DNA of 64,000 bases from Candidatus Angelobacter sp. (GCA_035279585.1 DATEHN010000108.1:11554-75553), one strand, 5' to 3'; positions 9,721-57,555 are shown, counted from the stretch's first letter. Made by a program: numbers and translations. Notes: generated from the sequence alone by a model not told the origin.

Positions 9721-9737
9721 AAGACAAAATTCCAACA

Positions 9738-9768: not shown

Positions 9769-9820
9769 GCGCGGTCAGTTACACTGCTGAACAAGCTTAG
9801 ATAATCTGGGCGCGGATAAC

Positions 9821-13449: not shown

Positions 13450-13610
13450 GTCATCCTCCGAAGTATCAGAGTCACTTCATCCCACACGATGGCTTAATCA
13501 CCTATCTACAATGTCATATCTGCCACTATCTCGCAAGCCGGCGTAGCGTCTATTCTCAGTACATCGCAAGTACAATTCAAAAAGTTGCGCCCAAAAACAG
13601 GAGGACGTAA

Positions 13611-13943: not shown

Positions 13944-14199
13944 AATCCCGGTACCTCAACGCTGCTGTGTACGCCCTGCTCACGGTCGCAGGAAGTCGGG
14001 TTGTGCCTGGGAGCGCAGGCAGGCGAGAAACGCATTCGCGAGCTTGTAACCGCAGCGGGATTCACCCGCTTCCGGCGCGCTGCTGAAACACCTTTCAACA
14101 TTGTCTATGAGGCTCGGCCATAGATCTGCTGAGTAAACAAACACAGCGGGGATCGTTAAATCCTCGCTGTGTTTGTAACAAATCCGATCGGTACCTAAT

Positions 14200-15048: not shown

Positions 15049-15226
15049 CTGATCAACTTCTAAAGATTCTGAGAGCAGTGTAGCCGAATTTGCACCTTGG
15101 AAGAAGAATTTCAGTACGCTGAGAAAGACCGCCGGGCTGCACGTTGCAAGTGATCGCCCGCACAAAATGCGCTTCAACCATTACAATTTCACTGCAGCCA
15201 TAATTTCCGGAATCACGGTGGGGCTA

Positions 15227-27635: not shown

Positions 27636-30368
27636 ATGCTCGGTCGTTCCTGCAGGGCCGTTGTTGCGAAGCACTGTTCCCTCGGCATTTTCATTTTGGC
27701 TTGCGCTCTAAGCCAGGCAAAAGCACAGAACATTCCTAATCCTTGCCCGAATGCGCAGCCAATCCCCACGGAGTTGCGCCTGCCGCCCAACCTGCCGACC
27801 GGTGAGCCAGTAGCTTTTGAGAAACAGGTGCTGGCGTATCTAAGCACGCTCAACTATCGCAAGCTCGGCTGGTGTGAAGACAAGTGGGTGCGCGATACAG
27901 GCCCTTATATGAATGGGAAAGACGCAATCGTGCATCCGCCGGTGCGCATCTTCTATTCGCCTGAAGTCTCCAAGTGGCTGCTCGGTGACCGTCAGGGCGA
28001 GATTCCGGACGGTGCGGTCATCATCAAGGAGCAATTTGGTCCTGCTCCGGCTGCGCGCTTTGCAAATATTCCGCCGGACAAGCTGGGATGCTCAAACGAC
28101 TGGACCTTCATGATCAAGAATTCAGCCGCATCCCGCGACGGCTGGTTCTGGGGCGAGGTCTGGAACAGTGATCAATTTCCCATGAATTTTTCTGATCCGT
28201 TCCAGTATCCCAATGCCGGATATGGGCTCTACTGCCTGCGCTGCCATTCGTCGGCGGAGAAAGAACATACTTTCTCGACGCTGAACAACATCAAGAACGC
28301 GCCGGGATGGCCGCTGCAATACCGGGTTGACGATTCCTGGATGACGATCAAGGCCGATCCTCCAGGCGCCTGTGGCCATGGCAAGAGCGGCGCTGATCCG
28401 ACGGCCAATGAAGGTTTTCCCCAGCACGCACAGAATGCGCTGCTGGCAACCGAACATGTTCATCCTCTGGCAAAGCTGCTGGCAGCACCTCCCGTTCTGC
28501 AAAGGATGCCGCCGGAGCCGCTGGACAACTTTGTGCAGAAGTATCCCAAATCACTCGATCCGCTTACGAGCCCACAATTCGTCACCTCAGCGCAGTGTCT
28601 GGGATGCCATGGCGGTCTTGGCAATACCGGATTTGGACCCAGCATGGTCATTCTTCCGGACATGAATGTCTCGCCTTATGGTGAGTGGCGCTGGTCGCCC
28701 ATGGGGCTTGCTGGACGCGACCCGGTTTTCTATTCGCAACTGGATAGCGAGCTTGCTTTCCTGAAAAGCCAGCCGAAAACACAGCAGAACGTAGTGGATA
28801 CGTGCATGAGCTGCCACGGAGTCATGGGCAAAAGGTCTTTTGCGGCGGAGCATCCAACGGAAAATTTCAAGGTGGATTTTGTCTATGACACCGATCAATC
28901 TTCTGACGCCTTCCGCTATGGAGGCCTCTCACGCGATGGCATCAGTTGCATGGCGTGCCACCAGATGGCAGCGCCCAAAGACGGCCGCCTGAGCTATTTT
29001 CTGCAAAACAAGATCAACGGCCAATTTGATCTCACGCCGAACGACCAACTCAACGGGCCCTTCAAAGACGCGGAGATCACGACTTATCCCATGGACACAG
29101 CGATGGGAGTGAAGCCAAAATTTAATTCCTATATTCAGTCGCCGCAGATGTGTGGAAGCTGCCACACGATTGTCCTTCCGATTGTGGACAGCCCGAAGCC
29201 CGGAGAAACAGAGGTAGAACAGGCGACCTATCCGGAGTGGCTGAACAGCCAGTATCGCAATGAATATGGATCGGTGGGCACCACGCCCAAGACGTGCCAG
29301 GAATGCCACATGCCCACCGGCTACGTCGATCAGAAACAGAAAATCGATGTAACCCAGATCAAGACGCGCATAGCTACTGTGCAGGACCTTACGCTCCCGC
29401 AAACCGAACACCTGGCAACGCCGGAGCAAATCGACGTCCGCTACCGCGATGAAGGCTATCGCCGCCACGAATTGCTGGGAGCCAATGGGTTCCTTCAGGA
29501 GATGTTCCTGCTGCCGATCAACGATAGCGGAAACAACACGGTTCTTGGCGTGCGAACGAAAGACTACATGACCGGTTTCACCACCGACCTGAACAAAGCA
29601 GTGGACAACGTGGTGAAACAGGCGCAGAGCATTACGGCAACAGTTGGGATCTATAGCCTCCACGCGCAAGGAAATAAGCTTACAGTTGATGTAATTGTTA
29701 ACAACTTGGCTGGACATCGCTTTCCCAGCGGAGTTGGATTCCGGCGCGCCCTCCTTGAATTTCGGGCGATGGCTAACGGGCAGACCTTCTTTACCTCTGG
29801 AACCACCAACAGCATGGGACAGATCACAGACTCCAACGGCAAGGTGTTGCCCACGGAATCATTCGCGGGGGGAAAATATCAGCCTCATTTCAACCAGAAA
29901 AACCCCATCACCTCTTCTGACCAGGTGCAGATCTATGAGGAGCTCACCGAGGATGCGAACCATCAAATTACAACCAGCTTCACGCGGCGCGATCATGAAA
30001 TCAAAGACAATCGGCTGCTGCCCGCAGGGTGGTCTTTCACCGGTCCGCCCGACCTGAAGATTCCGGAGTTCTTTCTGGAAGCTACGCGTCCGAAGGGAGA
30101 TGCAGCAAATGATCCGGTATACCTTGCCGGCAAAGGACAGTCGATTGTGCGCTATGAAATTGCCATTCCGCCCAACCTGCAGAACCAGCCTGTAACCGTA
30201 AGAGTGTCACTCTATCTGCAAACTCTGCCGCCGTACTTCCTGGCGGACCGTTACCAGACGGCAACACCGGCAACCGGCCGGCTGAAATATTTAACAGGTT
30301 CCCTGGGAACGCTCAAGGACACGGAGTTGGCGAACTGGAAGTTGCTGGTGGCAACAGCAACGAAATAG
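27636..30368 (+). CDS. Secreted hexaheme c-type cytochrome family protein (910 aa)
   Basis: Signal peptide, then six CxxCH motifs read directly from the translation: CLRCH, CLGCH, CMSCH, CMACH, CGSCH, CQECH. Confidence 0.8.
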   Translation: MLGRSCRAVVAKHCSLGIFILACALSQAKAQNIPNPCPNAQPIPTELRLPPNLPTGEPVAFEKQVLAYLSTLNYRKLGWCEDKWVRDTGPYMNGKDAIVHPPVRIFYSPEVSKWLLGDRQGEIPDGAVIIKEQFGPAPAARFANIPPDKLGCSNDWTFMIKNSAASRDGWFWGEVWNSDQFPMNFSDPFQYPNAGYGLYCLRCHSSAEKEHTFSTLNNIKNAPGWPLQYRVDDSWMTIKADPPGACGHGKSGADPTANEGFPQHAQNALLATEHVHPLAKLLAAPPVLQRMPPEPLDNFVQKYPKSLDPLTSPQFVTSAQCLGCHGGLGNTGFGPSMVILPDMNVSPYGEWRWSPMGLAGRDPVFYSQLDSELAFLKSQPKTQQNVVDTCMSCHGVMGKRSFAAEHPTENFKVDFVYDTDQSSDAFRYGGLSRDGISCMACHQMAAPKDGRLSYFLQNKINGQFDLTPNDQLNGPFKDAEITTYPMDTAMGVKPKFNSYIQSPQMCGSCHTIVLPIVDSPKPGETEVEQATYPEWLNSQYRNEYGSVGTTPKTCQECHMPTGYVDQKQKIDVTQIKTRIATVQDLTLPQTEHLATPEQIDVRYRDEGYRRHELLGANGFLQEMFLLPINDSGNNTVLGVRTKDYMTGFTTDLNKAVDNVVKQAQSITATVGIYSLHAQGNKLTVDVIVNNLAGHRFPSGVGFRRALLEFRAMANGQTFFTSGTTNSMGQITDSNGKVLPTESFAGGKYQPHFNQKNPITSSDQVQIYEELTEDANHQITTSFTRRDHEIKDNRLLPAGWSFTGPPDLKIPEFFLEATRPKGDAANDPVYLAGKGQSIVRYEIAIPPNLQNQPVTVRVSLYLQTLPPYFLADRYQTATPATGRLKYLTGSLGTLKDTELANWKLLVATATK

Positions 30369-30641: not shown

Positions 30642-30677
30642 CGTCCGAAAATGGACACGGAAGTCCATAATTGGACA
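30642..30677 (+). promoter_or_regulatory. Tandem palindromic sites (candidate enhancer/UAS for the NtrC-type regulator)
   Basis: CGTCCGAAAATGGACA (30642-30657) and AGTCCATAATTGGACA (30662-30677) sit 20 bp centre to centre. The same TGTCCA-N4-TGGACA motif recurs at 36284-36320. Confidence 0.45.
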
Positions 30678-30739: not shown

Positions 30740-30755
30740 TGGCTCTAGGAATGCA
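30740..30755 (+). promoter_or_regulatory. Candidate sigma54 (-24/-12) promoter upstream of the ADOP permease operon
   Basis: TGGCTC-TAGGA-ATGCA has GG and GC at the exact consensus spacing of TGGCAC-N5-TTGCW. It lies ~130 nt upstream of ATG 30885. Confidence 0.45.
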
Positions 30756-30884: not shown

Positions 30885-33326
30885 ATGTCAACACTCTTTC
30901 AAGACTTCTCTTACTGCATTCGTTCTCTGAGGAAAACACCGGGATTCACATTCGTGTCCGTGGCCACCTTGGCGTTTGCTATCGCCGCTAACATAGTGGT
31001 TTTCAGCATTCTCGATGCGATAGCCCTACAGCCACCACCTTATCGCAATGCCGGCCGCATTTCGGTGCTTCGCTGGTCTGATCGTAAGCTTCAACCCCAA
31101 GCAGAGGTTTCGGCCGCCGTTTTCTTTATGTTGCAGAAACATGCCCAATCTTTTGCAACAGTCGCTGCATCATATCCGCAAGACGTGGGTATAAACCTTG
31201 CCGGATCGGGTGTTCCACGTTATGTCAAAGCCCTACGCGTGTCGCAGAGCTATTTCGAAACGCTCGGCGTAGAACCGATCCTCGGACGCTCCTTTTTGCC
31301 AGAAGAAGATCGGGCCGGCTCTCCGGGAACGGTTATCCTCAGTTATCGATTGTGGGAAACCGGTTTCAATCGGGAGCCTGCCATTCTCGGAGAGCAACTT
31401 AGGATCAATGGCGCCCAATTCTCGGTTATCGGTGTGATGCCTTCCGGATTTTATTCGTATCCCAATGCCGATGTTTGGGTTCCTCTACAACTCAATGACG
31501 CAAATGCCGATCCAGGTAGTGACTACTTAGTACTTGCTTCTTTGAAAGACACTGTGGTTCCCTCCCAGGCGGAACAGGAACTGTCGACACTTTCTCGTAA
31601 TTATCCTATGTCTTACCTTCCTGGCATGACAGCAGGAACGGCACAACTCAGCCTCGAAGATTTGCAGAAATTCCGTACTGCCAGGGTTCGCAGACAACTC
31701 ACTTTATTGTTCTTTGCAGTTGCCACAGTGCTTCTGGTCACTTGCACCAATGTAACTGTATTGCTTCTGGTGCGCGGACTTGCCCGAACACAAGAAATGG
31801 CGCTGCGAGCTGCTCTAGGCTCGTCAAAATGGAGGTTGGTCCAAATTGTTTTGACCGAAAGCGCGCTCGTTGCCGCATGCGGAGGGATCCTCGGGATTGC
31901 TTTGGGCAAGGAGCTGTTGCAGTTGGCTGTATCAATTCTGCCCCATCCTTTGTTGGAAGGCGCAAGAATTGACATGAACCGACAATCATTGCTTTTCGGT
32001 CTAGCGCTTTCAGCTTTAACCCTTGTCGTCCTCGGGTTCCTGCCTGCCATTAAATTGGACCTGAAGAGCATTACCGCCAGCTTGAGGCCGGCGAACCGGG
32101 GTATAACAGCCGGCGTTGGCCAGACCCGGCTGGCTCAACTCCTGGTAACGACGGAAGCAGCGCTGACGGTTGTTCTTCTTGGGTTCGGACTACTTCTATT
32201 GCAGAGCTTTATAAATCTGTGTTCGGTGAGTCCTGGCTTCAATCCGACGTCTGTATCCGTTATCCAGGTATCGCTTGCCGGTGCACGGTATCAAACCACA
32301 GCAGCCACATGTCGTCTGGTAGATTCGGTTGTCGATCAACTTGCGAGAACGGCAGGGGTCGAAACCGTAGGAACCAGCAATGGCCTGCCACTCGAAACCG
32401 GCCTGAATCTGCCTGTCTATCCAATGGATTCACCCCGCAATATCGACCACGCGGTCCAATATCGAATGGTCAAAGGCAGTTATTTCAAAGCCTTGCGCAT
32501 CCAGCTGTTATCTGGGCGATTGTTTTCCCAGCAAGACGGCGCAAAGGGGCAGCCCGTTGCAATCATCAATGAAGTACTGGCCCGTCGCTGGTGGCCGAAC
32601 GAGAGCGCGATTGGTCATTACCTCCATGCCGGCGAGGAATACGGTCCGGAGTTCAACGATCATCCACGCCAGGTCATCGGCGTTGTTGCCAACGTGCATG
32701 AACTAGGGTTGAGGTACGATTCTCCACCCACAGTCTTTGTGCCTGATGACCAGGTATCGGACAGCCTGACTGCGTTTACGAACAAGCTGTTTTTACTTTC
32801 CATCCTCGTTCGAACCAAGCAGGATCTGGAGATGTCCGAACAAATCAAGTCCGTCCTCGCCTCTGCTGACCCCGATCTTCCAATCGCATCTTCACGTCCC
32901 ATGACAGTCGTGATGAACGGATCTCTTGCTCGTCCACGCTTCTATACCCAGATTGCGGGGCTCTTCGCTGTTTTCGCATTGCTTCTGACAGCGATCGGGC
33001 TGTATGGGTTACTCAGCTATCAAGTACAGCTCAGGATGCCAGAACTCGGTGTCCGAATTGCCCTTGGAGCGACCCGGCCGCAGATAGTTTGGCTTATCAT
33101 CAGACAAGGCATACGTCTTTCCGCAACGGCTCTTTTCTTAGGGCTCATCGGTTCGATTTTTGTAAGCCGGGCTCTGAGTGGGATGCTTTATAATACCGAC
33201 CATGTCTTCTTACGGTTATTGATTGGGGAGGGTGCATTACTTGGGTTCGTTACGATAATGGTTACTTCCCTCGCTGCTGCTCGCATTTCCGCTATCGAAC
33301 CATTGACGGTCCTGCGCAGCCAGTAA
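30885..33326 (+). CDS. ADOP-family (MacB/FtsX-like duplicated) ABC transporter permease
   Basis: The N-terminus MSTLFQDFSYCIRSLRKTPGFTFVSVATLAFAIAANI is typical of acidobacterial duplicated orphan permeases. It has two MacB-periplasmic-core plus FtsX 4-TM halves and no adjacent ATPase gene. The ORF track starts at GTG 30828. Confidence 0.85.
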   Translation: MSTLFQDFSYCIRSLRKTPGFTFVSVATLAFAIAANIVVFSILDAIALQPPPYRNAGRISVLRWSDRKLQPQAEVSAAVFFMLQKHAQSFATVAASYPQDVGINLAGSGVPRYVKALRVSQSYFETLGVEPILGRSFLPEEDRAGSPGTVILSYRLWETGFNREPAILGEQLRINGAQFSVIGVMPSGFYSYPNADVWVPLQLNDANADPGSDYLVLASLKDTVVPSQAEQELSTLSRNYPMSYLPGMTAGTAQLSLEDLQKFRTARVRRQLTLLFFAVATVLLVTCTNVTVLLLVRGLARTQEMALRAALGSSKWRLVQIVLTESALVAACGGILGIALGKELLQLAVSILPHPLLEGARIDMNRQSLLFGLALSALTLVVLGFLPAIKLDLKSITASLRPANRGITAGVGQTRLAQLLVTTEAALTVVLLGFGLLLLQSFINLCSVSPGFNPTSVSVIQVSLAGARYQTTAATCRLVDSVVDQLARTAGVETVGTSNGLPLETGLNLPVYPMDSPRNIDHAVQYRMVKGSYFKALRIQLLSGRLFSQQDGAKGQPVAIINEVLARRWWPNESAIGHYLHAGEEYGPEFNDHPRQVIGVVANVHELGLRYDSPPTVFVPDDQVSDSLTAFTNKLFLLSILVRTKQDLEMSEQIKSVLASADPDLPIASSRPMTVVMNGSLARPRFYTQIAGLFAVFALLLTAIGLYGLLSYQVQLRMPELGVRIALGATRPQIVWLIIRQGIRLSATALFLGLIGSIFVSRALSGMLYNTDHVFLRLLIGEGALLGFVTIMVTSLAAARISAIEPLTVLRSQ

Positions 33327-33344: not shown

Positions 33345-34802
33345 ATGCTGCGGGGAATTATTGAGAAGCCTGGGCACCCTTGGCTCAGTTCTGCTCATAT
33401 GCGAAATTTCGAGAATCAATACCGCATTCTGGCTGCCGATGATCAACCCGCCGTGCTTGAAGCCCTGAAGATGCTGCTCCGGTCGGAAGGCTTTGAAGTA
33501 GAAACGGCCCGTTCACCCCAGGTCGCTCTGGAAGCAGTAAAAACGCGTGAATTCGATACTCTGATCCTGGACCTCAACTATGCCCGCGATACCACTTCGG
33601 GGAAGGAAGGCATTGAGCTTCTTGAAAGCATTCGTGAAGTGGATAACCAGGTACCGATCATCGTGATGACGGCCTGGGGCACGATTGATCTCGCTGTAGA
33701 GGCGGTACGCAGAGGTGCGCGCGATTTTGTCCAAAAGCCCTGGAACGACGACCACTTGATAGCTACGGTCCGAACCACTGCGGAACTGTACCGTGCCCTG
33801 CGCCAGGGACAACGCCTTGAAGCAGAGAACCGGCTATTTCGCAGCTATGGTGCGCCAAGTTTTGTCGCTACAGCTCCTGCCATGCGCCCCATAGTAGAAG
33901 CCATTTCGCAGATTGGCCCATCGGACGCCAATGTTCTTATTACGGGCGAACACGGCGCCGGGAAAGAGGTGGTGGCTTTGATGTTACATGCGGTTTCACG
34001 TCGCGCAGACAAACCGCTCATTGCCGTCAACACCGGGGGCTTGCCGGAGGGCACTTTTGAAAGCGAATTGTTTGGTCACGTCAGAGGGGCCTTTACCGAT
34101 GCCAAGGCGGACCGGATCGGGCGATTTGAAATGGCTGATCAGGGAACATTGTTCTTGGATGAAATTGCCAATGTTCCGCTGAGGCAGCAGGCCAAACTCC
34201 TGCGCGTTTTGGAGAGTGGGCAGATGGAGCGTGTAGGGTCCTCACGCACACGCCAGGTGAATGTGCGTGCTCTCTCTGCGACAAATGCGGACCTTCAAGC
34301 CAAATGCAATGCGGGTGAATTTCGTGAAGACCTTCTGTTTCGGCTTAATACTGTTGAAATTCACATTCCATCGCTGCGGGAGCGCCCTGAGGATATTCCG
34401 CCTCTGGCTGCACATTTCTTGAATAAACACGCCAGCCGTTATCATAAGGCGCTTCAGGGACTCAGCCCTGAAGCAGTGGAGAAACTCGTAACCTTTCCCT
34501 GGCCGGGAAATGTACGGCAGCTGGACCACGTTATTGAACGCGCCACGATCATGTGCAAAGGAAATTTCATTCAACCCGGCGACCTGGGGCTTCAAGTTTC
34601 CTCCGAACATCATCCAGCAGACCTGAGTGAGATGAGCCTCGAACAGGCGGAAAAGCTCCTGATCAAGAAGGCTTTAGCGCGTTATAAAGGGAGTGTGAAG
34701 CTGGCGGCTGAAGCGCTGGGTCTCAGCCGCGGCACATTTTATCGCCGGATGGAGAAGCACGGGCTACATGAATCCACGTCCGCCAGGAAACAGCAGCAAT
34801 AA
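33345..34802 (+). CDS. Sigma54-dependent response regulator (NtrC family bEBP: REC-AAA+-Fis HTH)
   Basis: REC domain (RILAADDQP...LILDLNY). AAA+ domain with Walker A GEHGAGKE, the loop ELFGHVRGAFTDA (GAFTGA variant), Walker B LFLDEI and R-finger region. C-terminal HTH AAEALGLSRGTFYRRM. ATG 33399 is an alternative start. Confidence 0.9.
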   Translation: MLRGIIEKPGHPWLSSAHMRNFENQYRILAADDQPAVLEALKMLLRSEGFEVETARSPQVALEAVKTREFDTLILDLNYARDTTSGKEGIELLESIREVDNQVPIIVMTAWGTIDLAVEAVRRGARDFVQKPWNDDHLIATVRTTAELYRALRQGQRLEAENRLFRSYGAPSFVATAPAMRPIVEAISQIGPSDANVLITGEHGAGKEVVALMLHAVSRRADKPLIAVNTGGLPEGTFESELFGHVRGAFTDAKADRIGRFEMADQGTLFLDEIANVPLRQQAKLLRVLESGQMERVGSSRTRQVNVRALSATNADLQAKCNAGEFREDLLFRLNTVEIHIPSLRERPEDIPPLAAHFLNKHASRYHKALQGLSPEAVEKLVTFPWPGNVRQLDHVIERATIMCKGNFIQPGDLGLQVSSEHHPADLSEMSLEQAEKLLIKKALARYKGSVKLAAEALGLSRGTFYRRMEKHGLHESTSARKQQQ

Positions 34803-36189
34803 AGGAATGGGACGGCTATCGCTGTCCTTTGAGCGCCGCCTGTTTCTTTCCGTACTGTTCGCCGGACTTCCTGGAGTCGGACTCGCCCTCTTTCTGCTTT
34901 GGTCAGGCCAGTATTCCCTCTACCATAAGACCCTGGGCACCGTTGTTCTGGCTCTTCTGTGGTCCTTATTGGCGGTGTCCGCTTGTGGGAGCGTCACCAG
35001 CGCATTGCGGGTCTTGTCAAATGTAATCGAATCTCTCAAGGAGGAAGACTTTTCCTTTCGGGCTGCGCATGCAATTAAGGGTGATGCACTGGGCGATCTA
35101 GCAATCGAGGTCAATAAACTTGCTCAAGCGCTCAACGAAGAGCGCCTGGCATCATTGGAAACCGTGAATCTATTTCGCCGCATCATGTCGGAAGCTGGAG
35201 CGGTGATGTTTGCCTTTTCCGATGACCGCTGCGTGCGCCTCATGAATCGAGATGCAGCCCGCTTGTTGGGCCATAGCGAAGAACAGCTGCTGCATCGCAG
35301 CGCGCAAGAGCTGGGTATTACTGATCTCATCGAGGGCCCACCCGCGGAAACAATAACCCGCATGTTCGGTGGTCTTGAACGTCGATGGATCGTTCGTCGC
35401 TCTCATTTCCGGTTCCATGGCATTCAACATACGTTAATCGTGATGTCGGAAGCATCCGAGGCGCTTCGCGCGGAAGAGAGATCAGCTTGGCAAAAACTTA
35501 TCCGCGTTCTCGGCCATGAGATTAATAATTCGCTTGCACCAATTAAGTCGATTGCATATACGTTGGCCCGAACGTCGGCAAGCGAAAATTTGCCGGCACC
35601 GTTGAAAGTTAACCTGAAACAAGGGTTGGAAGTCATTGCTGATCGTTCCGATTCCCTGAACCGATTTCTTCAGGCCTATACCCAAATCGCAAAACTTCCT
35701 CCGCCGTCACCCATGGTAAGTTCGTTGCCGGCCATTGTCTCCAATGTTGTTGCCTTGGAGCACAGACTTCCCATTGCCACTCTTTCGGATGGCTGTCTCG
35801 ATGTTCTTGTTGATCGTGACCAACTGGAGCACGCTATCATCAATTTGGTTCGTAACGCTGTCGAGGCGGTACTGATGAACTCAGAAGTGGTGCAGGATGA
35901 CGCCGTGACAATATCATGGCATTCACATGCAGGCGATCTCGAACTATGGATACGGGACCGCGGCATTGGCCTTCCCGAAACTCAGAACCTATTTGTTCCT
36001 TTTTACACCACTAAGCAGAATGGGACCGGCATTGGCCTTGTGCTGAGCCGCCAAATCATTGAAGCGCATAATGGCCGTCTCTCCATCCAAAACCGCCAGG
36101 ATGGGCCCGGTTGTGAAGTTAGGCTTTTCCTGCCTCGCTGTGTAGTCGCTCGCAAGCCGCTGGGACGTATGCCATCCACCGGAAAATGA
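34768..36189 (+). CDS. Sensor histidine kinase (2 TM, HAMP/PAS-like, HisKA, HATPase_c)
   Basis: H-box LGHEINNSLAPIKS, N-box LVRNAVEA, G-boxes DRGIGLP and GTGIGLVLSRQI. It overlaps or abuts the regulator gene (alternative start ATG 34807). Confidence 0.9.
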   Translation: MNPRPPGNSSNKGMGRLSLSFERRLFLSVLFAGLPGVGLALFLLWSGQYSLYHKTLGTVVLALLWSLLAVSACGSVTSALRVLSNVIESLKEEDFSFRAAHAIKGDALGDLAIEVNKLAQALNEERLASLETVNLFRRIMSEAGAVMFAFSDDRCVRLMNRDAARLLGHSEEQLLHRSAQELGITDLIEGPPAETITRMFGGLERRWIVRRSHFRFHGIQHTLIVMSEASEALRAEERSAWQKLIRVLGHEINNSLAPIKSIAYTLARTSASENLPAPLKVNLKQGLEVIADRSDSLNRFLQAYTQIAKLPPPSPMVSSLPAIVSNVVALEHRLPIATLSDGCLDVLVDRDQLEHAIINLVRNAVEAVLMNSEVVQDDAVTISWHSHAGDLELWIRDRGIGLPETQNLFVPFYTTKQNGTGIGLVLSRQIIEAHNGRLSIQNRQDGPGCEVRLFLPRCVVARKPLGRMPSTGK

Positions 36190-36283
36190 ATCTTTGCTTC
36201 CGTGCTTTAATGTAATCCGAGCCTCCAGAGGTTTTTATCCCCGTGAATACATCGGGACATCCTGCACCACACTTGCGCTCTCA

Positions 36284-36320
36284 TGTCCGCTACTGGATTC
36301 GATTTGTCCATAACTGGACA
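36284..36320 (+). promoter_or_regulatory. Tandem palindromic sites (candidate enhancer/UAS) upstream of the lanthipeptide operon
   Basis: TGTCCGCTACTGGATT (36284-36299) and the perfect palindrome TGTCCATAACTGGACA (36305-36320) sit 21 bp centre to centre. A third, weaker site TGTCCAAGTTTGGCGG lies at 36416-36431. Confidence 0.5.
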
Positions 36321-36474
36321 CGCAAACCGTAATTTTTCCTGAGATTGATCTAGGGACCGGAAATCAATTCAACACATCTATTGTTTTTCCATATACGAGA
36401 AGCACATACATCTCATGTCCAAGTTTGGCGGCTGCGAGTATTAAGGCAGTTTAGTACCATAGCGGCAATAACTA

Positions 36475-36490
36475 TGGCACAACACTTGCT
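36475..36490 (+). promoter_or_regulatory. Sigma54 (-24/-12) promoter
   Basis: TGGCAC-AACAC-TTGCT matches TGGCAC-N5-TTGCW at every specified position. It ends 48 nt upstream of the precursor-peptide ATG. Confidence 0.65.
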
Positions 36491-36537
36491 TACCTAGGAT
36501 GTACCCGATTTTAAATCTAAAGCTATGGAGAAAGTCG

Positions 36538-36678
36538 ATGCCCCAAGTTCTTAACTTTCAACGCCTGGGATTTAATGGATCACGGATTGATGATATTGAA
36601 CCATTGTTTCTTATCAGCAGTACCAGCAGCATCTGCTCAACCGTTCCAACAACCGGCAGCGGGATCCCAGCCAACTAG
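36538..36678 (+). CDS. Class III lanthipeptide precursor peptide (46 aa; not in ORF track)
   Basis: ATG 36538 is preceded by GGAGAAAGTCG. The product is MPQVLNFQRLGFNGSRIDDIEPLFLISSTSSICSTVPTTGSGIPAN. It has a leader motif VLNFQ (compare the ILELQ-type class III leader motif). The Ser/Thr-rich core contains S-x-x-S-x-x-C. It lies 130 nt upstream of the LanKC gene. Confidence 0.7.
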   Translation: MPQVLNFQRLGFNGSRIDDIEPLFLISSTSSICSTVPTTGSGIPAN

Positions 36679-36686
36679 GCCGATAT

Positions 36687-36730
36687 GCGGGGCTGCTCAC
36701 GGTTCGAAAACCAGCCGCCCCGCCATTTTT
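36687..36730 (+). terminator. Hairpin plus T-run between precursor and synthetase genes (candidate attenuator / partial terminator)
   Basis: GCGGGGCTG (36687-36695) pairs with CAGCCGCCCCGC (36712-36723) with one bulge, followed by CATTTTT (T5 at 36726-36730). Confidence 0.4.
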
Positions 36731-36808: not shown

Positions 36809-39547
36809 ATGCGCAGCAGACCGACCCTCTTGTACGAACTGCTCGATCGAGATTACTACGAGACATTCGATGCCTACGTGCCGGAGAAGGCGGATTTTTA
36901 TCATGCTGTCGATTCCAGGCTTCCCGCGGGATGGGAAATTCAGCGCCAAAATGTCTGGTTCCAATGCGGATCACCCGACAATGTGGTGCCGCAACAGGGC
37001 TGGAAAATCCATGTCTCCGCAACCTGCAAGGATGCCCGTGGCACTCTCGAGCGTGTCGTCACCGTGCTGTTTCGGAGAAAGGACACGGCCTTCAAATTTG
37101 CGCTCGACCGGGTTTCGCTTGCTCTCCTCAACAGCAAAGGCTGGACGCGTGGCGGAGCGGGCAAATTCATTACCATTTATCCGAAAGATATTCAATGTTT
37201 CTTGGAGCTGCTGGAAGAACTCCATAGCGTAACGCGCGGTCAAGCCGGCCCCTATATCTTGTCTGACTATCGATATGGCGCCGACGGCGTCGTCTTCTAT
37301 CGTTATGGTGGAATGCGCGCACGTTACAGTCTCAACGTAAGAGGAGAGCTCGTCCCCGTGCTGCTCGCCCCTGACGGTACAGAAACTCCGGACCGCCGCC
37401 TTCCCTTTCCCGTGACGCCCCCTTGGGCTGACGTTCCATTTCCTGCAGTCTCCGGTGAGGATACTCAATCAGGGGAGCTGATGCTCCTGCAAAACGGCAG
37501 ATACGAGATCCAAAATGTGATGGCGTTTTCCAATGCCGGCGGAGTGTATCGTGCTATCGACCGGCACACTGGGCTCCATGTAGTCCTAAAGGAGGCCCGT
37601 CCGCATGTTGGTCCTGCTAACTGTGGTATTGATGCAATAGAGCTATTGAAAAAAGAACACCGCTTGCTGACGATCCTGAGCGATAGCGGCATTGCACCCA
37701 GGCCCAATGACCTTTTTCAGGAATGGGAACACTGGTTCTTGGTCGAGGAATTCATCGAGGGAGTGACTCTGGCGAATCATTCCTTACAGCATAATATTCT
37801 GCTGCGCACCAGACCATGCTCTGACGATCTACAGCAGTGGTTAACTACGTTTTCGAGTGTCGCCTTGAATCTCATCAAGACCATTGAAATCTTGCATGAC
37901 CATGGAATTGTATTCGGCGACCTTTCCCCCAATAACCTGATCGTCAAACCAGGCACCAATGACTTGTGCGTGATTGATTTCGAAGCAGCGCAGCAGATAG
38001 GCATAGACGCGCCCCTCGTGCTCTACACTCCCGGCTTCGCCTCTAAGCAGCGAATGTCCAGCGGAGCTGCCACTTTTGCCGAAGATTATTATGCCTTGGG
38101 GGCCGTCCTGAGTTCATATCTTCTGCCATTGAATGGTCTGTTCCAGTTCCGTCCTGAAGCCAAAACGGATGTTCTCCGTTCCATTGCAATTGACCTTCAT
38201 CTGCCGGCCAATATTGTTGATGCCATTCTGCGGCTCCTCAGCTCGGAGCCTGCCGAGCGCCCAACACCGAAAATGCTCACGCAACTCTTCACCACTCCAT
38301 GTGAACCCATGAATGTTCCTTCCAACGCGGCGCGCATCGACTACGGCGCATTGATAGGAGATATTGAGGGCCATATCCTCAATTCAGCAACTTACAAGCG
38401 CCATGACAGGCTGTTTCCCGCCGATGCGTCACTGTTCGCGACAAATCCTCTAAGCTTGTCCCATGGGGCGGCCGGGGTCGCCTACGCGTTGCATCGGATT
38501 TCTGATCAGTTTCCCGAGCGGGCCGTTGACTGGATCCTTCAGCATAAGATTACGAACAACGCGTATCCGCCTGGCTTATACATTGGGTCCTCGGGAATAG
38601 CTTGGTGTCTGCTTGAACTTGGCCTTCAAAAGGAAGCCGAGAAGATATTTCAGCTCACATTGTCCAGCCCTCTTCGATATAAGGCCGCAGACTTGTTTTA
38701 TGGCATGGCCGGCAACGGATTAACCGCATTGCGTTTCTTCATGGATACTCAAAATGAGTCATACCTGGATTGTGCAATCGGCGCTGGTGAAGAGCTGCTA
38801 CGAACAGGCTGCAGAAGCGGCAACGGGCTTTACTGGCCGGATGGTTCGGAAATACGGCTAGGCATGGCACATGGCGCGAGCGGAATAGCACTCTTTTTGC
38901 TTTATCTCTTCATGATAACTGAGGATGCTCGTTTCCTCGCCGCAGGGCAGGGCGCTCTGAATTTCGATTTAAGTTTCGCGCGTGAGACCAGGGATGAAGG
39001 ACTTTCCTGGGCACATTCCGATCATGTTGCATCTCCCCTCTATCCATACTGGCGCTTTGGGAGCGCCGGCGTGGGCGCCGTTGTATTGCGCTACTACAGG
39101 TTGCTTAGAGACCCCCAGTATCGATCCCTCCTCGAACAGATTTTCATCGAGGTGGATCGGAAGTATGCCGTTTTAACAGGGCAGTTCATGGGATTGTCCG
39201 GGCTTGGCGAGTTCTCGCTTGATCTTTACGAGTATTTTGGCGAGGAGAGATTTTTGAACAGCGCCAGAAAGGCTGCGGAGGGAATCATGCTCTTTCGCGT
39301 CGACCGCGCTGGCATCGCATTTCCGGGCGATCAACTTCTACGCCTTTCCTGCGACTATGGGACGGGAAGTGCCGGTGTTGCTTTGTTCTTGAACCGTCTC
39401 GCAGGCCGCCAGGGCAACAATTTCATGTTGGATTCTCTTTTCCATCTTCCCGCCGGCCTGCCCGAAAATACCCTGTCACCTTCGCAGCAACATTCCATTG
39501 CTCTTTATGATGTCATGCATCATCAATACATCCATTCCGGATGGTAG
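36809..39547 (+). CDS. Class III lanthipeptide synthetase LanKC (lyase - Ser/Thr kinase - zinc-ligand-less LanC-like cyclase)
   Basis: The RBS GGAAGGA precedes the ATG. N-terminal lyase motif QGWKIHVSA. Kinase motifs VVLKEARPHVG, GIVFGDLSPNNLIV and VIDFEAA. The C-terminal LanC-like repeats carry GMAHGASGIALFL, but YWRFGSAG replaces WCxG and SCDYGTGSAG replaces CHG, so the Zn ligand set is incomplete. That points to class III rather than class IV. Confidence 0.85.
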   Translation: MRSRPTLLYELLDRDYYETFDAYVPEKADFYHAVDSRLPAGWEIQRQNVWFQCGSPDNVVPQQGWKIHVSATCKDARGTLERVVTVLFRRKDTAFKFALDRVSLALLNSKGWTRGGAGKFITIYPKDIQCFLELLEELHSVTRGQAGPYILSDYRYGADGVVFYRYGGMRARYSLNVRGELVPVLLAPDGTETPDRRLPFPVTPPWADVPFPAVSGEDTQSGELMLLQNGRYEIQNVMAFSNAGGVYRAIDRHTGLHVVLKEARPHVGPANCGIDAIELLKKEHRLLTILSDSGIAPRPNDLFQEWEHWFLVEEFIEGVTLANHSLQHNILLRTRPCSDDLQQWLTTFSSVALNLIKTIEILHDHGIVFGDLSPNNLIVKPGTNDLCVIDFEAAQQIGIDAPLVLYTPGFASKQRMSSGAATFAEDYYALGAVLSSYLLPLNGLFQFRPEAKTDVLRSIAIDLHLPANIVDAILRLLSSEPAERPTPKMLTQLFTTPCEPMNVPSNAARIDYGALIGDIEGHILNSATYKRHDRLFPADASLFATNPLSLSHGAAGVAYALHRISDQFPERAVDWILQHKITNNAYPPGLYIGSSGIAWCLLELGLQKEAEKIFQLTLSSPLRYKAADLFYGMAGNGLTALRFFMDTQNESYLDCAIGAGEELLRTGCRSGNGLYWPDGSEIRLGMAHGASGIALFLLYLFMITEDARFLAAGQGALNFDLSFARETRDEGLSWAHSDHVASPLYPYWRFGSAGVGAVVLRYYRLLRDPQYRSLLEQIFIEVDRKYAVLTGQFMGLSGLGEFSLDLYEYFGEERFLNSARKAAEGIMLFRVDRAGIAFPGDQLLRLSCDYGTGSAGVALFLNRLAGRQGNNFMLDSLFHLPAGLPENTLSPSQQHSIALYDVMHHQYIHSGW

Positions 39548-39654: not shown

Positions 39655-40059
39655 TCAATCATTAAGGCCTTCCCCAACCAACGCGAGCATGTCTAAAAAG
39701 TCCCACAGTTCCGCAATTCGGCCATCAGCAAATCGGTAGATGCTGGCGCCGTCAATGCGTTTCTTCTTGCCCGAGGGCGGGATCCCCATAAAATCATTGG
39801 TATGTGTGCCAACAAGCTGATATCGGACCGCAACCTTGTCTCCCTCCCACAGCCAGTCTTTTGAAAGGAACTGGGCGTCCGGAAAAGCCGCCAGGAAATG
39901 CCTTACGTACGCCTTGAAAGAGGCTACTCCTTTGAATGAGCCCGAGCTGCCGTGACGCGTAAAATCCTGGTGCAACACGTCCCCGGCTTGCTCCACCCGG
40001 TCAACGTGCCAAAGCTTGTTGTATTGCATTAGCAAAGATGCATTAATACTTTCGCTCAT
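39655..40059 (-). CDS. SnoaL-like polyketide cyclase / predicted ester cyclase family protein
   Basis: 134 aa with the pattern DFTRHGS...AFPDAQF...VRYQLVGTHTNDFMGIPPSGKKKRIDGASIYRFADGRIAELWDFLD, typical of the SnoaL/ester-cyclase fold. Confidence 0.7.
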   Translation of the reverse strand: MSESINASLLMQYNKLWHVDRVEQAGDVLHQDFTRHGSSGSFKGVASFKAYVRHFLAAFPDAQFLSKDWLWEGDKVAVRYQLVGTHTNDFMGIPPSGKKKRIDGASIYRFADGRIAELWDFLDMLALVGEGLND

Positions 40060-40080: not shown

Positions 40081-40419
<339 letters not shown>

Positions 40420-40466: not shown

Positions 40467-41069
40467 TTATCCTTGCCGGACCGCTATACCAGACTTGCGA
40501 TATTTGCGAGCGCACCAGTGAACAAAGCGGCTCGTCAATAAAACAAGCCCACAGCCCAGGGCCAGGCCGATCGGTACGACCCACCAACCGAGAAGGTCTC
40601 GGCCGCCGGCAGGTGGGCTGCCAAAGCCGAGACGAAAAGATATGTCGCCGTTCGAAAGCACCCATACTCCCGCGCTGCGATGGAGTGGTTTCAGTAGCGC
40701 GCAAAGAACAAGGACCAATCCCAAAAAGTACATGGAGATTAATCCTATCAGTGCAAGAAGACCGTTGATGCTCAAAGGGGCCCAACAAAGAAGAACTGGA
40801 AAGAGCCAGGCCGGTGACCGGCTGACAGCCTGCCGGCTCAAGATGCCTGCGAGATACTGGCTAGCCACTTCTTCCGGTGGTCCTATCGATGCCAGCACCT
40901 GGTCTACGGCGTCGGCAGAGACCTCTCCTTTCTCAGCCAGCTTGGCCATGATCTCGCTGCGCACTTCGCTGATCATCTTCTCCACGTCCTGGCTCTTCAA
41001 TTTTCGCAAGTGAGAGCGCAATCTTGAAAGAAACGCTTCTATCTTTTGTTGCGCATCGTCTTTCATCAT
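40467..41069 (-). CDS. DUF1700/HAAS-like membrane protein
   Basis: From ATG 41069 the product reads MMKDDAQQKIEAFLSRLRSHLRKLKSQDVEKMISEVRSEI...VLASIGPPEEVASQY, a DUF1700-type N-terminal helical domain. About 4 TM helices follow. The longer ORF-track start would overlap the halogenase gene. Confidence 0.5.
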   Translation of the reverse strand: MMKDDAQQKIEAFLSRLRSHLRKLKSQDVEKMISEVRSEIMAKLAEKGEVSADAVDQVLASIGPPEEVASQYLAGILSRQAVSRSPAWLFPVLLCWAPLSINGLLALIGLISMYFLGLVLVLCALLKPLHRSAGVWVLSNGDISFRLGFGSPPAGGRDLLGWWVVPIGLALGCGLVLLTSRFVHWCARKYRKSGIAVRQG

Positions 41070-41152
41070 CAATTCGAACCTGTTCCCTTTCTCAAAAATC
41101 CGACCCGCAGGCTGCTCGGGGTTCAGTTGGATTGTATTGCATGGCAATCCAT

Positions 41153-42865
41153 TCATTTTGGCTGCAGAACGCAAAGGCCATTTGAATTACCATTGCTGTA
41201 CAGTGGCGGCAGAGTGGCCGGCGGGAGTCCGGCCTTTTCGATAGGATCAGACCCGCGATACGGCGCCTTGGTTCCACCATAACGTGTACTGAGGTAATCG
41301 TAGACATGCGGCAGTGTTTTGACCAGGTTCTCAGACCGCCTGCGAAGCTCGTCGAAGGCTGCAAAAACCTGAGCTGTGGGCAAATGATCCAGGATCGCCA
41401 GTCCGCGCTTTGGCGCTGCGCCCAGTCCAATCAACATCGAACTGTAGGAATATGCGGTGAAACCGTGGAAATTAGGATTGATGGTTCGGTCGGTTGGCAG
41501 ACGTTCTTTCCACAACTGCAACCGTTCTTTCAGGCCATCGGGTACGACCAGATCGTGCTTTGTGGCTTTCCAGAAGTCGGTATCATCCCTGGTCCCAATT
41601 ACATAATGCATGGTCAGAAATTCGCGAACGCCATCAATGCAATCCGCAACCGCCTTGTTGTAGCTCTTGACGCTGGCCTCGTCGTAGCCGTGTCTGGGAA
41701 AATAATTCACAAGTTGCTCGATCCCGTGGTGAATAAAGAAAATGCCCGTTGACTCCAGGGGTTCTACGAAACCGCTGGCAAGCCCGATTGCCACACAGTT
41801 CTTCACCCATGATCTTGCCGACCTGCCGACTCTCATCTTGATATGCGATGCGCGGCACCCATCGGCCTTCTTGCCTAGATGGTTACGGAACTCCTGCTCC
41901 GCAGCTTCAGGGCTGGTAAAAGCGCTCGAATATACGTACCCTGTGCCGGTTCGATGATAAAGGGGGATCTTCCAGACCCAGCCTGAACTCAAGGCTGTGG
42001 CGGTGGTGTAAGGCTCCATAATATGGTCCGCATGATCGCCGGACACCTGCATGGCAATGGCGCTGTCACAAGGCAGCGACTCGTTGAACGAAATGAAGGG
42101 CTCCTTGAGCGCCCGATTAATCAGCAATCCGCGGAACCCGGTACAGTCAATGAACAGATCACCTTCAATTTCGCCATGGTCTTTGGTCACAATCGACAGA
42201 ATTCGGCCGTCCTCCCCGAGTCTTACGTCTACAACATCATCGAGTACTTGCCGCACACCCTGCTTTTGCGCATAGCCGGTCAAGTATCTCGCGAGTAAAG
42301 AGGCGTCGAAATGATAGGCATAGGGATACTGGATCCTGAGGTCATCCACAAACAATGATTCGTTGTTTGTCTCTGACCCGTTGATGTATCCATCCACCTT
42401 CCGATCAAAAGAATAGCCGTTGAAGTAACGGGGCGACCTTTGCGCATCACAGATTGCCGGGATAGAAAAACATGCATAATCGAACGGCGCGCCCAGTTGA
42501 TCTCTCAGTTTGAGCCACCATTCAATGGTGCTCCATCCCTGCACCAGATCGAATTTCTGAAATGGGTGGTAAAAGTGGCGCCGTTCGCGGTTCCAATTTT
42601 CAAACCGGATCGCGAGTTTGTAGCCGGCGTGGCACTCCGGCATCCAGTCTTCCTCGCGTAAGCCGAGGAACTCGAAAAACAAGTGGATGTAGCTGAAAGT
42701 TGCTTCGCCCACGCCGATGCTGTGGATGTCAGGCGACTCTACGAGTGAAATATCCACCTTGCGGCCGAAGGCTTTGCCGAGGAAAGATGCGGTCATCCAA
42801 CCAGACGAGCCTCCTCCCACGATGACGACTTTGAATTTTCTTTCACTTCCATTGCTGATATCCAT
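41153..42865 (-). CDS. Flavin-dependent (tryptophan-halogenase family) halogenase
   Basis: ATG 42865 is preceded by AAGGATGGAAG. FAD motif VVIVGGGSSGWMTA, then SIGVGEAT. The catalytic-Lys context is AGYKLAIRF and the WxWxIP motif reads GWVWKIPL. Confidence 0.85.
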   Translation of the reverse strand: MDISNGSERKFKVVIVGGGSSGWMTASFLGKAFGRKVDISLVESPDIHSIGVGEATFSYIHLFFEFLGLREEDWMPECHAGYKLAIRFENWNRERRHFYHPFQKFDLVQGWSTIEWWLKLRDQLGAPFDYACFSIPAICDAQRSPRYFNGYSFDRKVDGYINGSETNNESLFVDDLRIQYPYAYHFDASLLARYLTGYAQKQGVRQVLDDVVDVRLGEDGRILSIVTKDHGEIEGDLFIDCTGFRGLLINRALKEPFISFNESLPCDSAIAMQVSGDHADHIMEPYTTATALSSGWVWKIPLYHRTGTGYVYSSAFTSPEAAEQEFRNHLGKKADGCRASHIKMRVGRSARSWVKNCVAIGLASGFVEPLESTGIFFIHHGIEQLVNYFPRHGYDEASVKSYNKAVADCIDGVREFLTMHYVIGTRDDTDFWKATKHDLVVPDGLKERLQLWKERLPTDRTINPNFHGFTAYSYSSMLIGLGAAPKRGLAILDHLPTAQVFAAFDELRRRSENLVKTLPHVYDYLSTRYGGTKAPYRGSDPIEKAGLPPATLPPLYSNGNSNGLCVLQPK

Positions 42866-56488: not shown

Positions 56489-56511
56489 AAATCTGTCCTC
56501 TTGATTCTTTC

Positions 56512-57555
56512 TCAACCGGTAACACTCAAGCTGGCAAAACCTGCCACTTCGGCATAGGTGCGCTGACCCCATTCCATCCATGACCATCCCGGCCCGGCTT
56601 CGAGAGGGCTCTCCACCTGGCGCGGGGCGGTCGGCAGCACCGATAAATTCAAATTGTTCTGAGCGAGATACTCGTCGTTATAGATCGTATCGACATAGCG
56701 GTGGCCGTCGTCCGGGAAAATGCACACCACTTTGGCCTTCTTGTTCTTTCTCGCCCACTCTGAGGCAATTAACCAGGCGGCGCCGCTAGTGCCGCCGCAG
56801 AACAGAGATGTCTGCCGGTGCAGCTCGCGCGTGGCCTTGTAGGCCTCGGCTGCTGTGACCCAGTGGACCTCGTCGAAAATGGTGTGGTCCAGGTTTTCAG
56901 GCAGCAGGCTGTTGCCGAGCCCCCGCAACTGCCTCGGGCCTTCGGGCTGGCCAAACAACACGCTGCCGAACGTATCAACGCCCACTGCTTTCAAATCGGG
57001 GTAAAGCATGCGTAAATAGCTCGTTGTGCCACACATCGACCCTCCTGATCCCACTGTGCCTACCAGGCAATCGATCTGCCCGAGGGATTCCACCAGTTGT
57101 CCTGCAAATTGACCATAGGCTCCTGGATTACAGGGATTGTGGTACTGGCTAACCCACCAGGTATTCTTCTCTTCCGCTCGGATCTTTTCCAGGCAATCGA
57201 GACGAGCCCTCTGATAGCCGCCTGCAGCCGCCGGACCGCTCACAATCTCTACGCGGGCTCCAAGGTCTTCCAACCGCTTTCGTAACGCGCCTTCGCAGGC
57301 GTAATCCGATACGATCACGAGCCGGTATTTCCTGAGATTGCAGATGATCGCCAGCCCCAAAGCCATATTTCCAGATGAGCTTTCAACAATCAGAGACTGG
57401 GATTGGATCCAGCCTTCTTCCTGTGCGCGCCGTATGCAGAACTCTGCGGGAAAGAGTTTCATGAACGGAAAAACTGCAGCATACAGATTGTGCTCAAGTG
57501 GAACAAGCCGTGGCTGATAGCAGCTGAGAATTGCGGATTCTTTTTGATCACTCAT
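56512..57555 (-). CDS. Fold-type II PLP enzyme of the cysteine synthase family, SbnA-like
   Basis: Lys context FMKLFPA, ESSSGNMALGLA, phosphate loop GTVGSGGSMCG, GGTSGAA and C-terminal IFPDDGHRYVDTIY. From memory, the overall layout parallels SbnA-type beta-replacement enzymes. Confidence 0.7.
   Translation of the reverse strand: MSDQKESAILSCYQPRLVPLEHNLYAAVFPFMKLFPAEFCIRRAQEEGWIQSQSLIVESSSGNMALGLAIICNLRKYRLVIVSDYACEGALRKRLEDLGARVEIVSGPAAAGGYQRARLDCLEKIRAEEKNTWWVSQYHNPCNPGAYGQFAGQLVESLGQIDCLVGTVGSGGSMCGTTSYLRMLYPDLKAVGVDTFGSVLFGQPEGPRQLRGLGNSLLPENLDHTIFDEVHWVTAAEAYKATRELHRQTSLFCGGTSGAAWLIASEWARKNKKAKVVCIFPDDGHRYVDTIYNDEYLAQNNLNLSVLPTAPRQVESPLEAGPGWSWMEWGQRTYAEVAGFASLSVTG

Follow-up and report, generated by a model that had tools for sequence, protein, structure and literature searches.

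A predicted sigma-54 regulon linking a class III lanthipeptide operon to an NtrC-type two-component system in Candidatus Angelobacter

Organization of the lanthipeptide locus

The stretch of DNA analysed here, referred to throughout as the window, comprises 64,000 nt of one strand from Candidatus Angelobacter sp., an uncultured soil bacterium (Acidobacteriota, Terriglobia). It contains a lanthipeptide operon, lanA-lanKC, that is preceded by a candidate sigma-54 promoter and, further upstream, by palindromes that we propose as sites for the activator of that promoter, a bacterial enhancer-binding protein (bEBP). On the + strand, the region from 30.8 to 39.5 kb holds five genes, which encode an ADOP permease, a bEBP response regulator, a histidine kinase, the lanthipeptide precursor and its synthetase:

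30885-33326, + strand: ADOP-family duplicated MacB/FtsX-type permease, with two matches each to Pfam MacB_PCD and FtsX
33399-34802, + strand: NtrC-type response regulator (bEBP), with REC, sigma-54 AAA+ and Fis-type helix-turn-helix (HTH) domains
34807-36189, + strand: histidine kinase, with two transmembrane (TM) helices and a short outer loop, followed by PAS, DHp and HATPase domains
36538-36678, + strand: lanA, precursor of 46 aa, MPQVLNFQRLGFNGSRIDDIEPLFLISSTSSICSTVPTTGSGIPAN, with the class III leader motif (V/I)LxLQ and an S-x-x-S-x-x-C core
36809-39547, + strand: class III synthetase LanKC, 912 aa, with Pfam RamC_N lyase, Pkinase and LANC_like cyclase domains

The permease scores 702.6 bits against NCBIfam TIGR03434 (cut-off 622.3), and its start at 30885 follows the gene call on an identical contig, the open reading frame (ORF) itself being open from a GTG at 30828. 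The bEBP ORF is likewise open from 33345; the NCBI copy (P0001), which is 100 % identical and named 'sigma-54 dependent transcriptional regulator [Candidatus Angelobacter sp.]', begins at Met19. In the kinase, the outer loop is conserved, of the YSLDHK type and only 8–10 aa long. The precursor carries VLNFQ in its leader and SSTSSIC in its core, and has a Shine-Dalgarno sequence, GGAGAA, at 36527–36532; homologous precursors lie upstream of LanKC in all of the related loci described below, where an alignment returned (V/I)LxLQ and S-x-x-S-x-x-C in 28 loci.

The synthetase scores 764 bits against the NCBIfam model NF038151 (cut-off 575) and 589.7 against the LanL model, below the cut-off of 650. 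Both LanM (class II) and LanL (class IV) identities were ruled out by domain content together with these scores. Its cyclase domain has WAHS and CDYG in place of the Cys and Cys-His zinc-ligand motifs of LanC, at what we take to be the ligand positions. By these sequence criteria the synthetase is a class III LanKC, and both the zinc-ligand-less LanC-like domain and the precursor motif fit a class III cluster. A previous examination of this DNA (hereafter the sequence-only reading) had correctly recognized a lanthipeptide operon, with the enzyme class now corrected to class III LanKC.

A candidate sigma-54 promoter and tandem palindromes upstream of lanA

The elements on which the regulatory interpretation is built are the following:

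36475-36490, + strand: candidate sigma-54 promoter of lanA-lanKC, TGGCACAACACTTGCT, an exact match to TGGCAC-N5-TTGCW with GG and GC 10 nt apart
36284-36320, + strand: tandem palindrome pair upstream of lanA, TGTCCGCTACTGGATT (36284-36299, three mismatches to TGTCCA-N4-TGGACA) and TGTCCATAACTGGACA (36305-36320, no mismatches), starts 21 bp apart
30642-30677, + strand: tandem palindrome pair upstream of the ADOP operon, CGTCCGAAAATGGACA (30642) and AGTCCATAATTGGACA (30662), starts 20 bp apart
30740-30755, + strand: sigma-54-type -24/-12 element of the ADOP-bEBP-histidine kinase operon, TGGCTCTAGGAATGCA, with two mismatches and correct GG/GC spacing
36416-36431, + strand: unpaired weak site, TGTCCAAGTTTGGCGG, with three mismatches, alone at chance level
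36264-36276, + strand: GCACCACACTTGC, a 12/13 copy of the promoter core (36477-36489) without the GG of the -24 element

The promoter sequence is the only exact match to TGGCAC-N5-TTGCW in the window, against 0.13 expected. It sits exactly where the sequence-only reading had placed it and agrees with the consensus throughout, the distance to the lanA ATG at 36538 being 47 nt rather than the 48 nt given there. Counting from the C of the -12 GC at 36489, transcription would start at approximately 36501; this start therefore implies a leader of 37 nt and excludes the ATG at 36499 as a start codon. That in-frame ATG was rejected on two further grounds: it has no Shine-Dalgarno sequence, and the homologous precursors begin at M-x-x-(V/I)L. 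In the 350-bp intergenic region (36190–36540) no sigma-70-like site was found by a scan that covered the sigma-70 consensus only.

Palindromes with no more than one mismatch occur twice in the window (at 36305 and 30662), against 0.12 expected, whilst matches with three mismatches are at chance level (23 vs 25 expected), for which reason the site at 36284 matters only as the partner of that at 36305. Two tandem pairs with starts 19–22 bp apart were found, compared with a mean of 0.01 in 200 Markov-1 simulations, and these flank the ADOP permease-bEBP-histidine kinase operon, each lying upstream of a sigma-54-type -24/-12 element. On the lanA side the pair is 154 nt upstream of the -24 element; on the ADOP side the element, which is weak and was absent from the sequence-only reading, begins 62 nt downstream of the pair. 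From sequence and placement we propose both pairs as enhancers for the bEBP, and further propose a second promoter upstream of the ADOP operon, by which the regulator operon would be autoregulated. The lanA-side palindromes had been reported at these same positions and spacing, and the motif said to recur upstream of the ADOP operon 5.6 kb away is indeed present there, at 30642 and 30662, 5.64 kb upstream. The description of 36305–36320 as a perfect palindrome applies to its 6-nt arms, the central TAAC not being self-complementary.

Two lesser elements accompany the lanA promoter. The site at 36416, also listed previously, is correct in sequence and coordinate. As a site it is doubtful, being unpaired and at chance level, and it is possibly a degenerate half-site; it shares the 10-mer TCTCATGTCC exactly with the 36284 site, and in two relatives (L004 and L028) a proximal pair lies at a similar distance from the promoter. 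The partial copy of the promoter core, GCACCACACTTGC, is located 213 bp upstream of the core itself and directly before the enhancer pair; it is probably non-functional and may be the remnant of a duplication.

Conservation of the proposed control elements in related loci

A scan of species-representative genomes for LanKC returned 28 loci, of which 21 carry orthologs of both the permease and the regulator (and of the kinase where the contig reaches it) and seven have no regulator ortholog. The 21 loci are mostly from Candidatus Angelobacter and other Terriglobia metagenome-assembled genomes (MAGs), and their regulators show 69–74 % identity to that of the window in the case of complete genes. 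Two of these loci have the regulator operon in the same direction as lanKC, which is also the arrangement of the window; in the others it is divergent.

The window and all 21 of these loci have an element of the form GG-N10-GC 42–94 nt before the ATG of the precursor; it has two mismatches or fewer to the -24/-12 consensus in 20 of the 22, compared with a background rate for such elements of 1.5e-4 per position (∼0.9 % per 60-nt window). When 66 nt were aligned with the element as anchor, information was present only in cttTGGCA and tTGC(a/t), the flanks being unconserved. Exact consensus matches in 552 kb (both strands) number four, all of them upstream of lanA.

The palindromes behave in a similar manner. 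With no more than one mismatch they occur 70 times in the same 552 kb, against ∼1.2 expected, and 49 of them fall in the 1.3 kb that precede lanKC. They are limited to loci with a gene for a bEBP ortholog, where they concentrate before lanA, ADOP genes and a small number of regulator genes; they are as such not the unrelated dispersed repeat that the sequence-only reading had named as one outcome that would overturn it. Tandem pairs number 55, with starts 20 bp (43 pairs), 21 bp (nine pairs) or 19 bp (three pairs) apart, and both members conform to TGTCCA-N4-TGGACA. Every genome locus with a regulator ortholog has at least one pair, whilst the seven LanKC loci without the ortholog have none. 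Furthermore, divergent loci have a pair and a correctly oriented -24/-12 element of their own on each side. For the ADOP-side element, TTGG-T-T---AATGC is invariant between the window and three relatives (L031, L021 and L003) with diverged flanks, and the ADOP-side pair is aligned in two of them (L031 and L021).

A metagenome scan with the regulator provided further orthologs (L031–L035), and six further loci (L033–L035 and L111–L113) were compared for the lanA promoter. In L033–L035, TGGCAA-N5-TTGCT lies 50–60 nt before lanA, and the dyads have diverged to TGTTCG-N4-CGGACA plus a degenerate partner. The regulator orthologs of L111–L113 were picked blind to their neighbourhood, by long contigs only; all three turned out to neighbour lanKC and a small precursor gene. 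Their sigma-54 elements precede lanA by 47, 48 and 58 nt, and pairs passed the search thresholds in two of them. What can be read directly from these alignments and scans is the presence of the motifs, where they lie, that they are conserved and that they co-occur with the regulator. Taken together, the arrangement is far above chance and constitutes, as far as sequence comparison can establish, a conserved regulon in 27 related loci. The recurrence of element and pairs with a bEBP ortholog supports what the sequence-only reading had proposed, namely a sigma-54 promoter with upstream bEBP sites on a lanthipeptide operon.

Possible additional targets and other loci in relatives

In a number of relatives the combination of palindrome pair and sigma-54 element extends beyond the two operons of the window. 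It was found upstream of extra ADOP paralogs in L005, L012, L015, L020 and L022, upstream of a second bEBP of ∼550 aa that has no REC domain in L005, L015 and L022 (at about 12860–15960), and upstream of an AraC-type regulator in L008 (14170–14993) and L011 (2739–3600). The REC-less bEBP is also encoded in L006 and L020, where a single dyad upstream provides partial motif evidence. The second bEBP and AraC targets suggest a regulatory cascade below the two-component system in some relatives. L021 has both pair and -24/-12 element upstream of a SnoaL-like gene; sigma-54 control of the SnoaL gene downstream of lanKC in the window was considered and rejected, as that gene, unlike its counterpart in L021, has neither.

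A paralogous regulator-kinase clade (L036–L053; 57–63 % identity, also with GAFTDA at the sigma-54 contact loop) occurs without lanKC. One of its members, L049 (3467–10752), has HlyD-type genes and ABC ATPase genes as neighbours and a TGTCCG-N4-CGGACA pair upstream, and others are found beside distant ADOP-like permeases. The existence of this clade without lanKC, together with the efflux neighbours in L049, suggests an older association of the module with efflux-type transporters, and that the lanthipeptide operon was recruited into an efflux-associated module that preceded it.

A Gemmatimonadales locus (L024) was rejected as a member of the regulon: it encodes a 48 %-identical bEBP and a kinase, but neither a -24/-12 element with correct spacing nor TGTCCA dyads were found before its precursor genes. 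In this MAG, four tandem class III precursor genes precede lanKC (8700–9800), the bEBP loop is GAYTDA, and the first precursor is immediately preceded by an inverted repeat, ATGACG-ACA-CGTCAT. Separately, a locus from Acetofilamentum sp. (Bacteroidota; L029, 3754–5480), one of the seven LanKC loci without an ortholog of the window bEBP, presents in order a REC-less bEBP that has a TFTGA loop and a weak match suggesting a PAS domain, a sigma-54-like site, TGGCACGAAAATTGCG, a class III precursor (MNAVLALQKL...) and lanKC. In the Bacteroidota, too, class III lanthipeptides may therefore be under sigma-54 control, with different upstream sites.

With respect to the lanthipeptide genes themselves, most of the relatives' precursors end in FEME or FQME. 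A separate LanC-like cyclase gene (about 415–427 aa) is present right after lanKC in L005, L006, L008, L011, L020, L022 (about 12715–14000) and L112 (762–2009); its product is closest to the LanM C-terminal domain and has Cys at the ligand positions, and the window has no such gene. It is unusual for a LanKC whose cyclase domain lacks the ligands to be accompanied by a stand-alone cyclase.

The regulator and a proposed mechanism

The bEBP gene lies 1.7 kb upstream of the lanA promoter, and its product has Pfam matches to REC (E-value 2.9e-25), Sigma54_activat (4.2e-61) and HTH_8 (2e-11). The receiver pocket is intact (DD32-33, D76, T of VMTAWG and K of QKPW), as are Walker A and B motifs (GEHGAGKE and LFLDEI), and the sigma-54 contact loop reads GAFTDA, with GA[FY]TDA invariant in all orthologs. 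Its best NCBIfam similarities are to the PEP-CTERM regulator PrsR, AtoC, NtrC and ZraR, all below cut-off, with 371 bits for PrsR (503 required), 370 for AtoC (714) and 365 for NtrC (559); by these scores it is a distinct subfamily of the NtrC class.

On the strength of motif, gene order and conservation we consider it probable that this two-component system, comprising a membrane kinase and an NtrC-type bEBP, controls two sigma-54 promoters, that of lanA-lanKC and that of its own operon. Under this model the bEBP would be phosphorylated at Asp76 (ORF numbering), and dimers of the phosphorylated protein would bind the two adjacent TGTCCA-N4-TGGACA dyads, which, with starts 20–21 bp apart, would therefore present the same face of the helix. 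Assembly of the AAA+ ring would then be followed by looping to the closed complex of RNA polymerase and sigma-54 on the -24/-12 element, bridging a gap of 154 bp at lanA and 62 bp at the ADOP operon, with ATP used by the ring to open the promoter. The enhancer at 36284–36320 and the promoter at 36475–36490 would thus drive lanA and lanKC, whilst the enhancer at 30642–30677 and the promoter at 30740–30755 would drive the permease-regulator-kinase operon. Because the regulator operon carries the same signals, the circuit would be positively autoregulated and the permease co-induced with the peptide. Binding, looping and sigma-54 dependence are here inferred from the established mechanism of NtrC-class activators. 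More speculatively, the kinase and the ADOP permease could jointly sense, as input, the mature peptide or a perturbation of the envelope.

Evaluation of alternative explanations

A number of observations weigh against sigma-54 control by this bEBP. No ORF with an RpoN box was found in the window or in loci L001–L030; that this genome has rpoN is an assumption based on current knowledge of the Acidobacteriota. The IHF-type site WATCAA-N4-TTR has no match anywhere in the window, and so none between enhancer and promoter. Four of the relatives (L033–L035 and L111) keep the promoter and show no pair at the search thresholds. Binomial significance is overstated because the related loci are homologous and do not represent independent trials; the argument consequently rests on conservation of the motifs against diverged flanks and on their presence or absence alongside the regulator. 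The GAFTDA loop departs from GAFTGA by a G to D change at position 5, and for Dickeya VfmH, which also has GAFTDA, no interaction with sigma-54 was detected and no RpoN was recovered in a pull-down (PMC10714721). The same variant is among those compatible with activation in the enhancer-binding proteins of Desulfovibrio vulgaris (PMC4641369). Finally, the stretch from the kinase gene to lanA showed no terminator, and read-through from the upstream operon may therefore add to lanA expression here. Were the -24/-12 sequence not a working promoter at all, lanA would be served by such read-through or by a housekeeping promoter, and the palindromes would belong to another regulator. Beyond the missing terminator, this account can draw on the non-canonical loop and on the limited knowledge of promoter types in the Acidobacteriota, given a scan restricted to the sigma-70 consensus. 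In most relatives, however, lanA is divergent from the regulator operon, which makes read-through impossible there, and the element is still found at the same distance as an island of conservation; pairs and regulator ortholog, moreover, co-occur without exception in the genome loci, and we regard this account as very unlikely. Least probable of all, to the point of being nearly dismissed, is that the palindrome is a chance match or a dispersed repeat resembling repetitive extragenic palindromes or miniature inverted-repeat transposable elements. The chance frequency of three-mismatch matches in the window would be in keeping with it, but 64 kb contain only two sites with one mismatch or fewer, and the two pairs stand beside sigma-54-like elements that flank the regulator operon; across the 552 kb the sites are confined to the promoter regions of a few gene types, and no flanking repeat structure or terminal repeats were seen.

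With sigma-54 control by the bEBP retained, the purpose of the circuit can be viewed in more than one way. The same layout could serve a defence module in which permease and kinase sense foreign antimicrobial peptides or envelope damage, the permease being induced as a detoxifying pump and the lanthipeptide as a counter-measure, in the manner of Bce-type systems and with the peptide not an autoinducer. This is a minority possibility that nevertheless deserves serious attention, as the kinase, with two TM helices and an outer loop of 8–10 aa, resembles intramembrane-sensing kinases and is always encoded with a MacB/FtsX-type permease. The paralogous clade at 57–63 % identity without LanKC (including L049, with its pair and its HlyD-type and ABC ATPase neighbours) and the extra ADOP paralogs with pair and promoter in five relatives point in the same direction. 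Set against these are the lack of an ATPase gene beside the ADOP permease in the window and the finding that regulator orthologs of at least 66 % identity are all linked to lanA-lanKC where the contig passes the kinase gene, which argues for a peptide-specific role. Conversely, the lanthipeptide may be a self-made signal, exported by or sensed through an ADOP permease partnered with the kinase, upon which the kinase would phosphorylate the bEBP and both operons would be switched on; we put this forward tentatively and judge it rather unlikely. If true, it would represent a peptide quorum- or competition-sensing circuit in the Acidobacteriota and a first function for the large, so far uncharacterised family of ADOP permeases, and the circuit would extend in relatives to the second bEBP and AraC regulators as a cascade.

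Neighbouring and accessory features

One further feature lies inside the lanthipeptide operon itself:

36687-36723, + strand: stem-loop in the lanA-lanKC gap with CAUUUUU after it, -26.5 kcal/mol, z = -2.4

Strong hairpins are found at the equivalent place after lanA in L005, L008, L010, L021 and L022. A simple terminator scan did not call the stem-loop in the window, and from its position it may be an attenuator or a transcript stabiliser that sets the ratio of precursor to enzyme transcript. Among known RNA families, the sole match between 29 and 41 kb was a sub-threshold one to CrcZ (24 bits vs 95), which is due to a perfect (ACA)14 microsatellite at 40313–40354. The intergenic region is not explained by a leader RNA or riboswitch. 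The microsatellite, (TGT)n on the minus strand, is placed between a HAAS-domain gene (40467–41174, minus) and the SnoaL-like gene (39655–40059, minus), and could be hypermutable or an A-rich tract of the Hfq/Crc type.

Directly upstream of the ADOP promoter region, positions 27636–30368 encode a protein of 910 aa that carries a cytochrome P460-like signature as well as multiple CXXCH (multihaem) ones; the gene is conserved in identical contigs and not in the related lanthipeptide loci. Directly after the lanthipeptide locus, a second, unrelated biosynthetic cluster occupies 40467–63870 on the minus strand, encoding a Trp halogenase, a lyase, a CmlA-type beta-hydroxylase, an ATP-grasp ligase, a beta-eliminating lyase, a methyltransferase, a thioesterase, a class IV aminotransferase, an ADOP-like permease (54035–56587) and a non-ribosomal peptide synthetase module of A-T-C type (60493–63870). 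Neither a TGTCCA dyad pair nor a consensus sigma-54 site is associated with this cluster.

Implications and comparison with known systems

Nearly all that is known of lanthipeptide regulation comes from Firmicutes and Actinobacteria, with OmpR-, LuxR- or SARP-type regulators acting at sigma-70 promoters. Sigma-54 promoters are silent without their activator. This property may explain why clusters such as this one would be silent in heterologous hosts, and suggests as an expression route that a host with rpoN be made to co-express the regulator itself or a variant that is phosphomimetic or has no REC domain. The sequence-only reading knew of no sigma-54/bEBP control of a lanthipeptide cluster, and a full-text search, of incomplete coverage, likewise found no description of it. 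A peatland study from 2026 reported that biosynthetic gene clusters (BGCs) of Acidobacteriota are enriched in sigma-54-dependent regulators, without a specific case (PMC13642348), and the present locus would supply one for that trend. The tandem dyads and -24/-12 promoter appear to form a conserved control code by which a sigma-54 activator is tied to a family of class III lanthipeptides in uncultured soil Acidobacteriota, and the connection of otherwise orphan ADOP permeases to a two-component system and a peptide product provides a first functional lead for that family.

The closest architectural parallels are NtrC-class systems, such as the enteric NtrB/NtrC-glnAp2, ZraSR and AtoSC, which share a regulator composed of REC, sigma-54 AAA+ and Fis-type HTH domains, two adjacent dyads upstream of a GG-N10-GC promoter and, as proposed here, an autoregulated regulator operon. 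The system described here differs from them in its target, a precursor and synthetase operon for a ribosomally synthesized and post-translationally modified peptide (RiPP), in having GAFTDA rather than GAFTGA, in a membrane-bound kinase with a minimal outer loop, and in its dyad, TGTCCA-N4-TGGACA. This dyad fits the general TGT-N10-ACA form of NifA sites. VfmH/VfmI of Dickeya also has a Fis-family, bEBP-type response regulator with a GAFTDA loop, in a two-component quorum-sensing system (PMC10714721), although the targets of VfmH are unrelated and include no lanthipeptide.

BceRS-BceAB of Firmicutes likewise combines an FtsX/MacB permease with large outer domains and a two-TM kinase almost without an outer loop, and, as is proposed for the window, the permease operon is itself a target. 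In the window, a short-loop kinase and an FtsX/MacB permease are present with no ATPase gene beside them; the regulator is a bEBP and not OmpR-type, the permease is a duplicated ADOP protein, and the link between permease and kinase is putative. The class I systems NisRK and SpaRK (Lactococcus and Bacillus) are established cases of autoinduction of lantibiotic operons, and resemble the circuit proposed here in that an in-cluster two-component system acts on the precursor promoter and on a second, transport/immunity promoter with positive feedback. The nisin and bovicin systems are autoinducible, lanthipeptide-cluster response regulators fall in the OmpR clade, and sigma-54 domains are found in 2 % of BGC response regulators (PMC10663231). 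NisRK-type systems of this kind pair OmpR-family regulators with sigma-70 promoters and belong to class I or II clusters (LanB/LanC or LanM) of Firmicutes; here, a bEBP is paired with a candidate sigma-54 promoter, no sigma-70-like site having been found, in a class III LanKC cluster of the Acidobacteriota. Since regulator type and promoter type differ from NisRK, and regulator type and the missing ATPase set it apart from Bce, the circuit is a member of neither family.

Lastly, ramCSAB (SapB) and other class III clusters of Actinobacteria share with the window a tri-domain synthetase of LanKC type, short precursors with an LxLQ-type leader and a Ser/Ser/Cys core, and an activator of the response-regulator type. 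For ramCSAB this activator is RamR, of the NarL/LuxR type, and Actinobacteria, to our knowledge, have no sigma-54; the locus in Candidatus Angelobacter is distinguished from them by its bEBP and by a precursor family with an S-x-x-S-x-x-C core and, in most relatives, the C-terminal FEME/FQME.

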